From contig OZ024757.1 of NCBI GenBank assembly GCA_964016885.1, forward strand, positions 18,166,001 to 18,230,000: a DNA stretch of 64,000 nucleotides, read 5' to 3'. The notes beneath the pieces were generated by a model, which saw nothing but the letters and a program-made list of their open reading frames with translations, had not been told where the DNA came from and made no database searches. Both the position numbers and the translations under genes were made by a program. Positions 4,762 through 61,220 of the stretch are shown here, in pieces (the stretch's first letter is position 1; each line of letters begins with the position of its first letter). The DNA comes from Eledone cirrhosa. Lineage: Eukaryota.

Positions 4762-5005
4762 TAAGCAAAGAGTTATTTAATTTGTTGGCTATTAAACAAA
4801 TGTATTTATAGCAGATTAGAAGCACTCTCCAAAATTCTTCTGGAGTATAATATTAATAAATGGAAACTATCTTTATAAAAGCATATTATTTTATTATATA
4901 TATTTCAAGGGTACCAACATTTTTGGTACGCCCTCATCAGATAAAATACAAAAGATGTTTTACAGATAGTGACATATCCAAAATAGGAACTTATCGATTT
5001 AAGTT

Positions 5006-7148: not shown

Positions 7149-7151
<3 letters not shown>

Positions 7152-7350
7152 CCAGTAAGACCCCGACGGCTGAGCTCAAGCCGTTTCGACGGCTAATTCT
7201 GGACTAAATTTAGTCCAGAATTAGCCGTCGAAACGGCTTGAGCTCGGCCGTCGGGGTCTTACTGGTTCCTATTACCCACTCTACTACCCTAAGTATTGAG
7301 TACTTTGGTGCGTTATGGTTTACCTGGTTCCTTACCACATTTTCTTCGTT
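7149..7350 (+). mobile_element. family-C fold-back element (120-bp palindrome 7149-7268 plus tail) in (TA)n
   Basis: Near-perfect palindrome; each arm has GAAA CGGCttgagctc(a/g)GCCG TC ggggt, the 3' half of an HHR. Confidence 0.88.
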
Positions 7351-11694: not shown

Positions 11695-11696
<2 letters not shown>

Positions 11697-11862
11697 CGAA
11701 GGTGTGGAACCAGTTGGACCATAACGCACCAGAGTACTCAATACTTAGGGTAGTAGAGTAATAGGAAAATGTTTAACCCCGACGGCAGAGCTCAAGCCGT
11801 TTCGACTGTCCACAAATAGCCATTGAAACGGCTTGAGCTCGGCCGTCGGGGTTAAACACTTT
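11695..11862 (-). mobile_element. family-C fold-back element
   Basis: Tail plus palindromic accccgacggc..gccgtcggggt. Confidence 0.87.
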
Positions 11863-12071: not shown

Positions 12072-12192
12072 ATATGAAAAGCTTCAGGACCCTTAGGTCC
12101 TGAAGCTTTTCATATTACCCACTCTACTACCCCAAGTATCGAGTACTCTGATAGGTGATGGTCCACCTCGTATTTTACCACACCCTTTCTGA
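12072..12192 (+). mobile_element. family-C-related element with a short terminal palindrome
   Basis: atatgaaaagcttcaggacc-ctta-ggtcctgaagcttttcatat followed by the ttacccactctactacc tail. Confidence 0.72.
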
Positions 12193-18620: not shown

Positions 18621-18807
18621 AACGAAGGAAATGTTGGTAAGCAACCAGATGGACCATAACGCACCAGAGTACTCAATACTTAGGGTAGTAGAGTGGATAA
18701 TAGGAAAATGTTTAACCCCAACGGCAGAGCTCAAGCCGTTTCGACGGCTATTTCAGTCCAGAAATAGTCGTCGAAACGTCTTGAGCTCTGCCGTCGGGGT
18801 TAAACAT
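18621..18807 (-). mobile_element. family-C fold-back element
   Basis: Tail plus palindrome centred near 18755. Confidence 0.88.
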
Positions 18808-18817
18808 GTTCATGTTC

Positions 18818-20775: not shown

Positions 20776-20779
<4 letters not shown>

Positions 20780-20969
20780 AAAATGTATGACCCCGACGGC
20801 AGAGCTCAAGCCGTTTCGACGGCTATTTCTGGACCAGAAATAGCCGTCGAAACGGCTTGAGCTCTGCCGTTGGGGTCATACATTTTCCTATTACCCACTC
20901 TACTACCCTAAGTATTGAGTACTCTGGTGCGTTATGGTCCACCTGGTTCCTTAACCTAACTCCTTCGTT
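20776..20969 (+). mobile_element. family-C fold-back element
   Basis: Palindrome centred near 20833 plus tail. Confidence 0.9.
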
Positions 20970-23195: not shown

Positions 23196-23398
23196 TAGGA
23201 ACGAGTAGGACTCCGACGGCTGAGCTCAAGCCGTTTCGACGGCTAATTCTGGACAGAATTGCGTCCAGAATTAGCCGTCGAAACGGCTTGAGCTCAGCCG
23301 TCGGGGTCCTACTCGTTCCTATTACCCACTCTACTACCCTAAGTATTGAGTACTTTGGTGCGTTGTGGTCCACCTGCTTCCTTACCACATTTCCTCCG

Positions 23399-23400
<2 letters not shown>
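23196..23400 (+). mobile_element. family-C fold-back element
   Basis: Palindrome about 23196-23321 plus tail. Confidence 0.9.
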
Positions 23401-23468
<68 letters not shown>

Positions 23469-23485
23469 ATGTTACGAAAAAATTC

Positions 23486-23548
23486 AAGACCCCGACGGCT
23501 GAGCTCCAGTCGTTTCGATCTAGCTGTCGAAACGGCCGTAGCTCAGCC
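23486..23548. mobile_element. family-C fold-back remnant
   Basis: aagaccccgacggctgagctc..tttcga..gtcgaaacggc. Confidence 0.72.
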
Positions 23549-24109
23549 AGTTTGGTAATGGTTCAGTGAGGATTTAGTGATGGTTCGGTAATGATTTTGT
23601 GAGGGTTTTGTGAATATTTGGTGAGGGTTATGTAATGGTTAGACAAGGTGTTGTTGATGGTTTGACGAGATTAGGTGATGGTTTGGCGAGGTTTTGATGG
23701 TGGTGTGACGATGGTTGGGTGATGGTTTAGTGATGGTTCGGTGAGAGTAAGGTGGAGAGTGGTTTGGCAAGGGTCTGGCGATGGTTTTGAGAGTATCTGT
23801 TGATGGTTTGTTGATGGTTAATTCTTGATTTTCGTTATATAGCAATCGCTTCAGACGTAAGATGAACCTTACTAACCTACAAATCTACATCTTAATGTTT
23901 ACCGTGAGACTAATGAAGGGTAATGGAATTAAAGACTGGGAGAAAAGCTAAGTTGCATAGAGTTGGAGCTGCTGATAAAAATAACGAAATAAAAATTAAT
24001 GATAAAGCTAGACAGAGCAACTTTGAAATTCACTTTCCTCTGCACCTGTTTCCGCTGATCGTAGTTTAAAGACAACCAAATAACAAACAAAACACCTACT
24101 CACACATAG

Positions 24110-49321: not shown

Positions 49322-49416
49322 AACAAAGGAATTGTAGTAAGGAACCAGGTGGACAATAACGCACCAGAAATAGCCGTCGGAACGGCTTGAGCTCTGCAGT
49401 CGGGGTCATACTTTTT

Positions 49417-49419
<3 letters not shown>
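49322..49419. mobile_element. family-C fold-back with one arm deleted
   Basis: Tail (..aacgcaccaga) fused to the centre (accagaaatagccgtc) at shared accaga. Confidence 0.82.
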
Positions 49420-49505
<86 letters not shown>

Positions 49506-56450: not shown

Positions 56451-56926
56451 TTTCAGGTCTCTACGAAGGTCCGACTTCCACACCGATCTCAAGCTCTTCA
56501 TTGCTGTAGTGGAGTCTGTGCTGCTGTATGGGTCTGAGACTTGGACACTGACCAAGAGACTCACTCAGATGGTGGATGAGTGCTACACGAGAATGCTGAG
56601 GATGGCTCTGAACATTAATCAGTATACACTGAGAATGAAAAACTCAGAGCTGTATGGGAGCATCCCAAAAGTGAGCTCAAAAGTGACACAGAGGAGACTG
56701 AGGTTGGCTGGACATGGTCACCGACATCCAGAGTTGACATTGCACTCAGTGCTCCTTTGGGAGCCCCTACATGGACACACTAGAAGAGGAAGACCAAGGT
56801 TAACATATGTTGATGCCCTGAGGACAGACACTGGACTGTTGGAGATGCAGGATATGGCAGCGATAATGAGGGACAGAGACCGCTGGAGAGAACTCGTCCA
56901 TGGATCTCGGGAATTTTACCCGCCTT

Positions 56927-56928
<2 letters not shown>
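56451..56928 (+). mobile_element. 5'-truncated RTE-group LINE in (TA)n with a 45-nt 5' inversion
   Basis: VESVLLYGSETWTLTK..LRLAGH..LLWEPLHG..RGRPRLTYVD..DRDRWR; 56451-56495 is the inverted upstream segment. Confidence 0.92.
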
Positions 56929-57382: not shown

Positions 57383-58545
57383 TAAGAAGCCATTTTTTTT
57401 TTTTAAGGCGGGTAAAATTCCCGAGATCAATGGACGAGTTCTCTCCAGCGGTCTCTGTCCCTCATTATCGCTGCCATGTCCTGCGTCTCCAACAGACCAG
57501 TGTCTGTCCTTAGGGCATCAACATACGTTAACCTTGGTCTTCCTCTTCTATTGTGTCCATGTAGGGGCTCCCAAAGGAGCACTGAGTGCAATGTCAACTC
57601 TGGATGTCGGTGAGCATGTCCAGCCAGCCTCAGTCTCCTCTGTGTCACTTTTGAGCTGACTTTTGGGATGCTCCCATACAGCTCTGAGTTTTTCATCCTC
57701 AGTCTATACTAATTAATGTTCAGAGCCATCCTCAGCATTCTCGTGTAGCACCCATCCACCACATGAGTGAGTTTCTTGGTCAGTGTCCAAGTCTCAGAGC
57801 CATACAGCAGCACAGACTCCACTACAGCAATGAAGAGGCGGATTTTCAGGTCTCTACGAAGGTTCGACATCCACACCGATCTCAAGCTGTGGCACGCCGC
57901 CCAGGCCTTGCTCTTCCTCTCAACCACATCATCTTCCGTATTCCCAATCTTTGCTCCCAAATACAGGAAGCTCTCAACCAATTCTAGCGGCTTCCAGCCT
58001 ACATTAGTGATCCCCTCTGGCTTCTCAACATTCTCTACCAGATATTTTGGTTTAGTCTCATTCATTCTCAGCCCCACACTCATCGACACAGTCTCAACCT
58101 CCCGCATCAAATCCTCTGCCTCCTTCACTGTATTTGTCACCAAAACTATGTCGTCGGCAAATTCAGCATCCGATACCTTTTGACTTTAGGAAGGCCTTTG
58201 ATTCTGTGAACCGTTACTGCCTGATGAAGATCTTACAGGCTTATGGAATCCCCAAGAGGATAGTTGACCTGATATCACTGCTCTACACCAACACCAAACC
58301 CCAAGTCATTACACCTGATGGGATGACAGAGTTCTTTGAGATACTAGCTGGAGTGCTCCAGGGAGATACATTGGCTCCCTACCTTTTTATCATCGTAGTG
58401 GACTATTGTATGCGCCTTGCACTGGAGAAACACCAGGACTCTGGCTTTACTGTAGTACCGGCTCAGAGCAGGAGAGTTAGGGCGAAAAAGGTATCGGATG
58501 CTGAATTTGCCGACGACATAGTTTTGGTGACAAATAAGAAGCCAT
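57383..58545 (-). mobile_element. RTE-group LINE with poly(A), 5' inversion (about 58180-58536) and 11-bp TSD
   Basis: TSD taagaagccat at 57383-57393 and 58535-58545; RT motifs FDFRKAFDSV, GVLQGDTLAPYLF, EFADD in the inverted part; FLYLG and YGSETW in the body. Confidence 0.95.
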
Positions 58546-61024: not shown

Positions 61025-61220
61025 AACGAAGGAAATGTGGTAAGGAATCAGGTGGACCATAACGCACCAAAGTACTCAATACTTAGGGTAGTAGAGTGGG
61101 TAATAGGAACAAGTAAGACCCCGACGGCTGAGCTCAAGCCGTTTCGAAGGCTAATTCTGTACTGATAATAGAGTACAGATTTAGCCGTCGAAACGGCTTG
61201 AGCTCTGCCGTCGGGGTCAT
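61025..61220 (-). mobile_element. family-C fold-back element
   Basis: Tail plus palindrome centred near 61166. Confidence 0.9.

Follow-up and report, generated by a model that had tools for sequence, protein, structure and literature searches.

The window, by which we mean the whole 64,000-nt stretch of DNA analysed here, derives from the Eledone cirrhosa genome, which is 3.0 Gb in size and rich in microsatellites. It contains eight copies of a short repeat, termed family C, in which two arms are joined head to head. Positions within the repeat are given in element coordinates, in which the A of TYAGT is +1 and the reference is a natural full copy of the parent element (L175); scripted positions at or below zero include a zero position. 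The copies in the window are as follows.

7149..7209, reverse strand: copy 1, short arm, from about +58 to a point 4 nt upstream of +1
7208..7350, forward strand: copy 1, tail arm, ending at +139 (coordinates from L175)
7212, 7230-7233, 7250-7252 and 7272: copy 1 landmarks, respectively the A of the inferred start site (+1), GAAA, GTC and the short-end position +61
11695..11806, reverse strand: copy 2, tail arm, +139 to +16
11808..11862, forward strand: copy 2, short arm, +2 to +56
18621..18754, reverse strand: copy 3, tail arm, ending at +7
18755..18811, forward strand: copy 3, short arm, beginning at about +1
20776..20834, reverse strand: copy 4, short arm, +61 to +2
20834..20969, forward strand: copy 4, tail arm, +4 to +139; the junction shares one base
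23196..23254, reverse strand: copy 5, short arm, +61 to +2, with an 8-nt fill after it
23263..23400, forward strand: copy 5, tail arm, +2 to +139
23480..23551, strand unassigned: copy 6, diverged relative, a small palindrome with an incomplete right arm
49322..49368, reverse strand: copy 7, tail piece, +139 to +93 only; no overlap with its partner and hence no mirror image
49364..49421, forward strand: copy 7, short arm, +4 to +61
61025..61165, reverse strand: copy 8, tail arm, extending just beyond +1
61172..61220, forward strand: copy 8, short arm, from +1, preceded by an untemplated G; its subfamily tag is unlike that of the partner arm

A preliminary description of these copies had reported the motif GAAACGGCTTGAGCTC(A/T/G)GCCGTCGGGGT, or a near variant, in each, and had proposed that the missing CTGAnGA half of a hammerhead ribozyme was replaced by a mirror image in all eight. 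The motif is indeed found at all eight sites, none of which has a CTGAnGA box near GAAA, and the five junction centres that had been quoted match the sequence as given. The mirror image holds for seven copies but not for the copy at 49322, in which the tail piece is joined to the short arm over a few shared bases. The two arms join within a few bases of +1 in the copies at 7149, 18621, 20776, 23196 and 61025, and one arm of the copy at 11695 ends at +16. (TA)n runs flank seven of the eight; in the diverged copy at 23486 the right arm runs out into unrelated sequence without (TA)n. No unit of the eight stubs, which start at or after about +1, contains both halves of the hammerhead core.

Other features of the window should also be recorded. 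A ninth, diverged relative (12074-12190) comprises a small palindrome and a tail and is ~85% like family C over +55 to +128. Hammerhead-like sites (CTGAnGA, hairpin, GAAA) number 41 against 15.7 expected, examples being those at 4934, 14915, 19812, 20026, 33170/33207, 38914, 40132/40289, 41117/41138, 58695 and 60893; several form head-to-head pairs in which the CTGA half is retained, and these resemble the ends of other families of Penelope-like elements (PLEs). Positions 56494-56927 and 57404-57837 make up a 434-nt inverted pair, 96% complementary and with 476 nt between its members, near a LINE-like fragment. An Rfam search of the window returned no hammerhead, only microsatellite-driven miRNA noise and chance matches.

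A genome-wide count gave 52,348 exact matches to a 24-mer of the arm and 12,199 mirrored cores that are likewise exact, while the reversed control patterns gave none. The abundance of family C arms is thus not due to chance. Most insertions are stubs of 120-200 bp that end at a fixed site, and these are inverted pairs lacking the 5' half of the ribozyme, not the tandem units of a non-LTR retrozyme. Partner arms differ on average by 2.4 of 45 bases, and in contigs of the public runs X1 and X4 depth increases more than tenfold at +1 and declines after +139 (summed contig depth does not equal copy number, and X1 may be the assembled sample itself); together these observations argue that the palindromes are not an assembly artefact. 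In runs X5 and X6, which carry two other organism labels, a few contigs contain the family, and one X5 contig has a small fold-back at +11.

The parent element and its ribozyme

Judged by its motifs, the parent of family C is a Hydra-clade PLE, of which family C represents the 3' end with the ribozyme. The reference copy consists of an inverted truncated copy, a pseudo-LTR (pLTR), an ORF and a second pLTR, in a unit of 3,118 bp. The ORF, with its ATG at +232, encodes 719 aa that include RWR at 37 (K to R), DKT at 117, YRDD, CNCPDRSIC at 572, CNLC at 670 and CKH at 698, and a GIY-YIG-type domain (VIY..YIG, R, H, E and N, read from the translation) lies C-terminal to the reverse transcriptase (RT). 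CCHH is not present, and the GIY-YIG core has one cysteine only. A Pfam search of the 719-aa ORF gave no match, and the clade assignment is therefore by motifs. The element displays the single RT/GIY-YIG ORF, the RWK/DKT/CxCx5C/CxxC/CxH series, the (TA)n targets (which also occur at most fetched loci) and the partial tandems with an inverted 5'-truncated copy and optional tail (L175, L196-L208) of the Hydra clade, whose marks, including a C-terminal GIY-YIG, are set out in the available description, as are inverted 5'-truncated copies and tails as known features of PLEs (PMC8557442). Assignment to the Neptune or Naiad clade was ruled out by the motifs and the domain order. The 'tail' of the arms (+62 to +139) is element sequence running on toward the ORF.

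Long head-to-head pairs of family C span 0.1-5 kb (100 listed cores, read by eye, yielded 22 such pairs), and the stubs are the shortest class of such pairs. Full-length copies that commonly begin at +1 were sought without success: a pLTR lies upstream in most copies that bear the ORF, and several that do begin at +1 are short jump products. Tandem arrays of full elements with a spacing of ~3.53-3.54 kb, greater than the 3,118 bp of the reference, are present at L222-L225 (G000:C1:91.48 Mb), G000:C1:437.20 Mb and G000:C2:320.55 Mb, and are possible sources of multimeric RNA.

The proposal that the window motif is the 3' half of a hammerhead was borne out, the ribozyme being of type I. The same description had predicted a non-inverted master of the form ACCCC-core-stem II-GAAACGGC. 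Such a master exists, as a recurring 79-nt non-mirrored form preceded by GGAATTACCCC that was recovered with a wider-gap search; its core, however, is mostly TTGAnAA or CTGAnAA and not the CTGAnGA expected. Indeed, 5,612 master copies contain the 5' half of a type I hammerhead with a relaxed core and only 38 an exact CTGAnGA, which was rejected as the master core on this count. CTGAnGA within 38 nt of GAAA gave 53 matches, and the 20 inspected were palindrome centres, ribozymes of other families or chance. Exact TTGAnAA cores (UUGAnAA in the RNA, U3-A8) number 3,665; all four bases occur at core position 7 and the remainder is fixed. GAAA and GUC are both present in the master, which thus has a type I core with a compensated U3-A8 pair, a variant known from Schistosoma PLEs according to the portion of PMC4209133 available to us. 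The mismatched CTGAnAA core is found in 21 of 110 fetched copies. In four of six copies that were folded the hammerhead lies within 1 kcal/mol of the free MFE structure, and in one of these, L136, it is the free MFE structure; in two CTG-core copies a competing fold is better by 3.5 and 6.9 kcal/mol. Folding places three stems around the core, with stem I open and 97% of cells paired. Covariation in 12 close copies was not above that of shuffles, and an Rfam search of L056 gave no hammerhead match. The suggestion that integration destroys the ribozyme is not supported, as thousands of insertions retain it whole, often on both arms; for the stubs, it is likely that the CUGA half was absent from the template RNA. 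Long copies tagged with CCTACTCG (for example L126, L140, L200 and L204) form an abundant subfamily with a mismatched C3-A8 core.

Boundaries of the arms at +1 and +42

The arms have a sharp upstream limit. Contiguous sequence amounting to 664 kb contains 81 arms, of which 59 begin in the interval from -7 to +12, with a peak at +1/+2, three begin between -8 and -30 and three read further. Exact counts fall from 52,348 arms reaching +11 to 23,426 reaching +1, and 5,586 reach 12 nt upstream, although the last figure was obtained with a shorter, more permissive anchor and is not strictly comparable with 23,426. Arms whose partner has been shortened by a long way likewise tend to stop at +1/+2. 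This wall lies ~17 nt inside the 3' strand of stem II, in its AU-rich part and beyond the GC-rich stems I and III, where a structural stall of the RT would not be expected. The same wall recurs at direct jumps from the ORF to the pLTR, which involve no palindrome. In 90 loci with the ORF start (of 306 matches), which were read by eye and in which jumps deeper in the ORF were possibly missed, 23 direct jumps were found; 15 begin from ~3 nt upstream of the start site to +5, seven at +40 to +42 and one elsewhere. Genome-wide, all ten matches to the direct-jump pattern start at +1 to +5.

The bases added at the wall provide further information. The AAAT subfamilies contain 358 double-full junctions, in which both arms reach +1. 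Among the first 50, read by eye, the fill is a single C/G in 22, C on both cDNAs in eight and C on one cDNA with a longer fill in three, the remainder comprising one single A/T, three without fill and 13 other A/T-led fills. Exact copies of the single C/G form number 109. At -1 the template carries T in all 9 long AAAT copies that were fetched and in all 22 that were listed, with L125 (C) as the exception. We read the extra C as a cap-like signature; in L1 and SVA an untemplated 5' G is accepted as the mark that copying of a cap leaves, as stated in the part of PMC4859970 at hand. A single C/G fill is not assignable to one of the two arms, and the cap base would be imitated by an AAAT subfamily outside the sample that has C at -1, but the eight two-sided cases point to a cap. 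The preliminary proposal that stem II acts as an RT stop and self-priming site does not accord with these data, as the wall lies in the AU-rich part, recurs in direct jumps and is accompanied by a cap-like untemplated base. Many arms extend 1-4 nt above +1 over a T run, 54 of 111 being preceded by T, and these extensions could reflect upstream starts or added A's. The +1 site coincides with a pyrimidine-A start motif in both the TTAGT and the TCAGT subfamilies, 232 nt before the ATG, and we take TYAGT to be an initiator-like motif. An internal promoter of the Inr type is described for Penelope pLTRs in the accessible parts of PMC2377424 and PMC3846280. T runs of up to ~20 directly before AGTCC (L120, L211 and other listed rows of the master search) correspond to poly(A) added to the cDNA end.

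A second wall is located at +42, exactly at GUC^G. Both arms end near this position in 279 insertions, which belong to three subfamilies with about 41,000 arms (40,997); of 100 sampled arms 96 had the templated TC before GGGG. In the first 50 of these insertions both arms stop exactly at +42 (GGGG) with an untemplated fill in 23; 14 have a blunt CCCCGGGG, which is ambiguous because it is also a favoured palindrome centre, six fall in a microhomology class, five have one arm past +42, one is ambiguous and one contains a jump junction. Single-base fills at +42 were A/T in ten cases and C/G in none (Fisher p = 1e-7 for the comparison with +1), which is what an uncapped end should show. In the genome-wide search for direct jumps at this site, five of six are at +42, one of which is already among the 23 read by eye. 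In L364 not only the jump but also both arms, sense and inverted, stop at +42, and at the seven loci with a +42 jump no upstream unit starts before +40. At one-sided junctions the +42 peak is modest (~18-20 of 100, read by eye) and is matched by comparable peaks of microhomology at +28, +32 and +38, and a BLAST tally places 4 of 535 arms at +42. These DNA boundaries suggest, indirectly, that the ribozyme cut the RNA at GUC^G in living cells. The C3-A8 subfamily tagged with CCTACTCG accounts for 8 of 50 of these mini-palindromes as against 25 of 100 arms.

Pairing of the arms and the origin of the stubs

One tail arm and one short arm make up 122 of 135 short-centre pairs, and the 3' ends of the arms peak at +61 and +139. 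Exclusion of 20 pairs from loci chosen for arm discordance leaves 102 tail-plus-short pairs, in which arms differ from their own partner at 2.4 of 45 bases and between copies at 5.6-5.9. The 102 pairs have 93 distinct centres. As had been suggested, the junctions therefore formed independently, and the joining of two cDNAs that had been proposed alongside fits these data. Both arms carry the same subfamily tag in 91 of the 102 pairs (mean 23 and maximum 39 after shuffling), and two different RNAs were thus rejected as the usual source of the arms. A few pairs do join different subfamilies (L004, L187 and the copy at 61025), and others have arms that do not overlap (the copy at 49322, L096, L097, L116, L159, L161 and L181).

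A selected search also recovered family C arms joined to other PLE families (L011, L013, L014, L020 and L024), a class that has no member in the unselected samples. In L013 (reverse strand, 1460-2330) and L014 (reverse strand, 1476-2030) truncated GIY-YIG copies that belong to other PLE families have a family C short arm at their 5' end, through two-RNA events or later deletions. In L011, L020 and L024 family C arms are fused to other hammerhead-bearing repeats, in L024 via a TTCTG common to both; in L011 and L020 the joint falls at the same position of one other family, which suggests a fixed 5' end there too.

The identity of the parent, the 3' ends at +61 and +139, one per arm, the walls at +1/+2 and +42 with their extra C and extra A, respectively, and the direct jumps are, as a whole, best explained if the stubs are pairs of cDNAs that ran off the 5' end of an RNA and were joined head to head, and we consider it quite probable, from the DNA boundaries, that this is how they arose. 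Pol II would start at the initiator TYAGT inside stem II of the pLTR hammerhead. The capped 5' end of the RNA would then carry the GAAA/stem III/GUC half only, with the whole ribozyme confined to the downstream pLTR. The RT-endonuclease would cut both strands of (TA)n and prime inside the RNA, at +61 on one strand and at +139 on the other. After some 60 and 140 nt the two cDNAs would arrive at the cap, which they would often copy as C, and their joining would involve 0-2 bases in common or a short fill, trimming being variable. The 5' half of the ribozyme would thus be missing from the stubs because transcription starts inside the ribozyme and that half is never in the template. On the order of 1% of templates would begin at the ribozyme cut at +42 and yield mini-palindromes. 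Long copies would derive from templates that have no end at +1, be it the downstream pLTR of RNA that escaped cutting, a multimer or a circle, or else from jumping to the RNA's 3' terminus. Among 30 fetched cores, one partner stops at +1, two are cut back in the tail and most other traceable partners read through, while several cores have no partner within 1.5 kb. That read-through is usually common to both arms favours one of the continuous templates over independent jumps.

A more speculative extension, which we regard as possible but doubtful, is that the promoter splits the ribozyme in such a way that strong-stop cDNA jumps via a repeat of +1 to +41 at both RNA ends, or that the two ends pair into one ribozyme and generate a unit-length circle. 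In the retrovirus-like version the 3' copy of the 41-nt repeat would end at the ribozyme cut, the jump would rebuild the pLTR and the palindromes would represent failed transfers; in the pairing version the two-ended ribozyme would remove the cap piece. Two loci provide hints. In L406 a long 3' UTR with the whole ribozyme ends exactly at GUC and is followed by a short fill ending in G and then by +1, as if a single imprecise jump had led from +1 to a long RNA that ends at GUC; no scar would remain after a precise one. Among 14 direct junctions of this type seven end at +40/41 and six at about +45 to +48, and the long upstream part occurs only in L406. L356 has three occurrences of the same +202/+42 junction, which lie on both arms, a pattern to be expected from a circular template. 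Short tandem units (~43-320 bp) that begin at or near +1 and repeat identical junctions (L215, L409/L410, L415, L402 and G000:C20:19837491-19837762) may reflect repeated jumps, a small circle or later DNA duplication.

It could be argued that the RT stalls in the stem II hairpin and that the cDNA folds back on itself, a view related to the self-priming reading of junction palindromes in the part of PMC3846280 available. The axis does lie within stem II, and the shared tags (91 of 102 pairs against 23 by shuffling), the rarity of discordance (163 A/T-discordant cores against about 12,199 cores, the 30 inspected resembling point mutations) and the read-through common to both arms (the 22 inverted pairs in 100 listed cores) are all expected if one arm is copied from the other. 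Fold-back is nevertheless unlikely. The longer arm can be either one and some arms do not overlap, a short cDNA cannot supply a sense arm that includes +62 to +139, and the same wall is present at direct jumps. Furthermore, the cap-like C and the GUC^G wall both follow the sense strand, against an antisense template, and the few pairs of different subfamilies are likewise at odds with copying of one arm from the other, although later deletion could blur some of the junctions counted here.

Less probable again is the proposal that the +1 wall is an RNA end left by a nuclease cut in stem II and not a transcription start. Such a cut would yield an equally sharp wall and permit ligation into circles, and identical jump junctions do recur in tandem at L215 and G000:C20:19837491. 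The fill base, however, is unlike that at the ribozyme-cut wall (C/G as opposed to A/T), and the site matches a pyrimidine-A start motif in both the TTAGT and TCAGT subfamilies, 232 nt before the ATG. That the stubs are longer inverted insertions trimmed afterwards by deletions at the palindrome centre is very improbable as a general origin: long inverted pairs exist, many junctions show short microhomology and one-sided loss, and trimming probably contributes to the shoulder from +3 to +40, but it explains neither the fixed walls at +1 and +42, nor the walls of direct jumps, nor the untemplated bases specific to each site, and arms ending between -8 and -30 are almost nil. Finally, movement of the palindrome as a MITE-like unit can be given virtually no credence, despite the terminal inverted repeats, TA targets, high copy number and a few recurring centres (up to 5 of 102), as short arms are nearer their own partner than other short arms (2.4 against 5.9 mismatches per 45), left arms do not group apart from right arms (the grouping that had been named as its test), the centres are mostly distinct and the recurring ones span subfamilies, the only arm-biased column, +58, adjoins the TA end, and the sequence is the end of an RT-coding PLE.

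Relation to other Penelope-like elements

Comparison by eye shows that the N-terminus and RT of the family C ORF resemble the printed protein of the octopus element Hydra-1_Obim. In the available description (PMC8557442) the two have in common the C-terminal GIY-YIG, RW(K/R), DKT, CxCx5C, CxxC, CxH, the lack of CCHH, (TA)n targets and a 3' hammerhead, as well as a 5'-truncated copy in inverted orientation with an optional tail. In contrast, the ribozymes differ in sequence, that of family C having a U3-A8 core and a stem II region of ~56 nt, and the element a 78-nt tail. Family C occurs mostly as stubs of 120-200 bp with a fixed 5' wall, a feature that the same description does not attribute to Hydra-1_Obim. 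The in vitro study of PAc, an Anolis Poseidon PLE (PMC11167929, in the part available), reports two internal RT start sites that bracket the tail, the cutting and extension of both strands at AT-rich DNA, a predicted dimer and a hammerhead at the pLTR-ORF junction. The +61 and +139 ends of family C match these two RT starts and the two-strand extension. The PAc account gives no RNA-seq reads ending at the ribozyme site and leaves the second-strand steps open, whereas family C has a DNA boundary exactly at GUC^G and head-to-head joining.

Penelope of Drosophila virilis and Adineta vaga is described, in the sections at hand of PMC2377424 and PMC3846280, with an internal Inr-type pLTR promoter, head-to-head palindromic junctions and a tail at one end, all of which recur in family C; in the latter, by contrast, both walls follow the sense RNA and jumps are recorded. 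Type I hammerheads in pLTRs are likewise described for PLEs (PMC4209133) and non-LTR retrozymes (bioRxiv 10.64898/2026.07.22.740005), and cleavage and circularisation of PLE RNA have been proposed in this literature, so far as available. In family C, however, stem III is full and not minimal, and its stubs consist of inverted pairs that lack a working ribozyme, in place of tandem ribozyme units. A further parallel is L1 twin priming, in which, according to the accessible text of PMC4859970, two priming events lead to inversion and a copied cap leaves an extra G; in contrast to L1, both family C cDNAs usually copy the same stretch from fixed internal sites, and there is no poly(A) tail.

Currently, to judge from the parts of these reports available to us, it is unsettled how the inverted junctions of PLEs arise, whether the template for transposition is sense or antisense (PMC3846280) and how pLTRs are rebuilt (PMC2377424), and the function of PLE hammerheads is called unclear (PMC8557442). 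In the mostly openly accessible literature searched, no report was found of a start inside the ribozyme, a cleavage fossil or the jumps. Thus, while the components of family C, a very abundant member of the Hydra clade, are known, its boundaries and jumps appear to be new within that literature. Family C represents tens of thousands of independent products with base-level boundaries that bear on the PLE transposition cycle. What these boundaries suggest is a capped template of sense polarity with its start inside the ribozyme, cleavage in vivo by a hammerhead that is mostly of the U3-A8 type, and end-to-end jumps, and each of these points offers an exact coordinate for RNA-end mapping or an RT assay.
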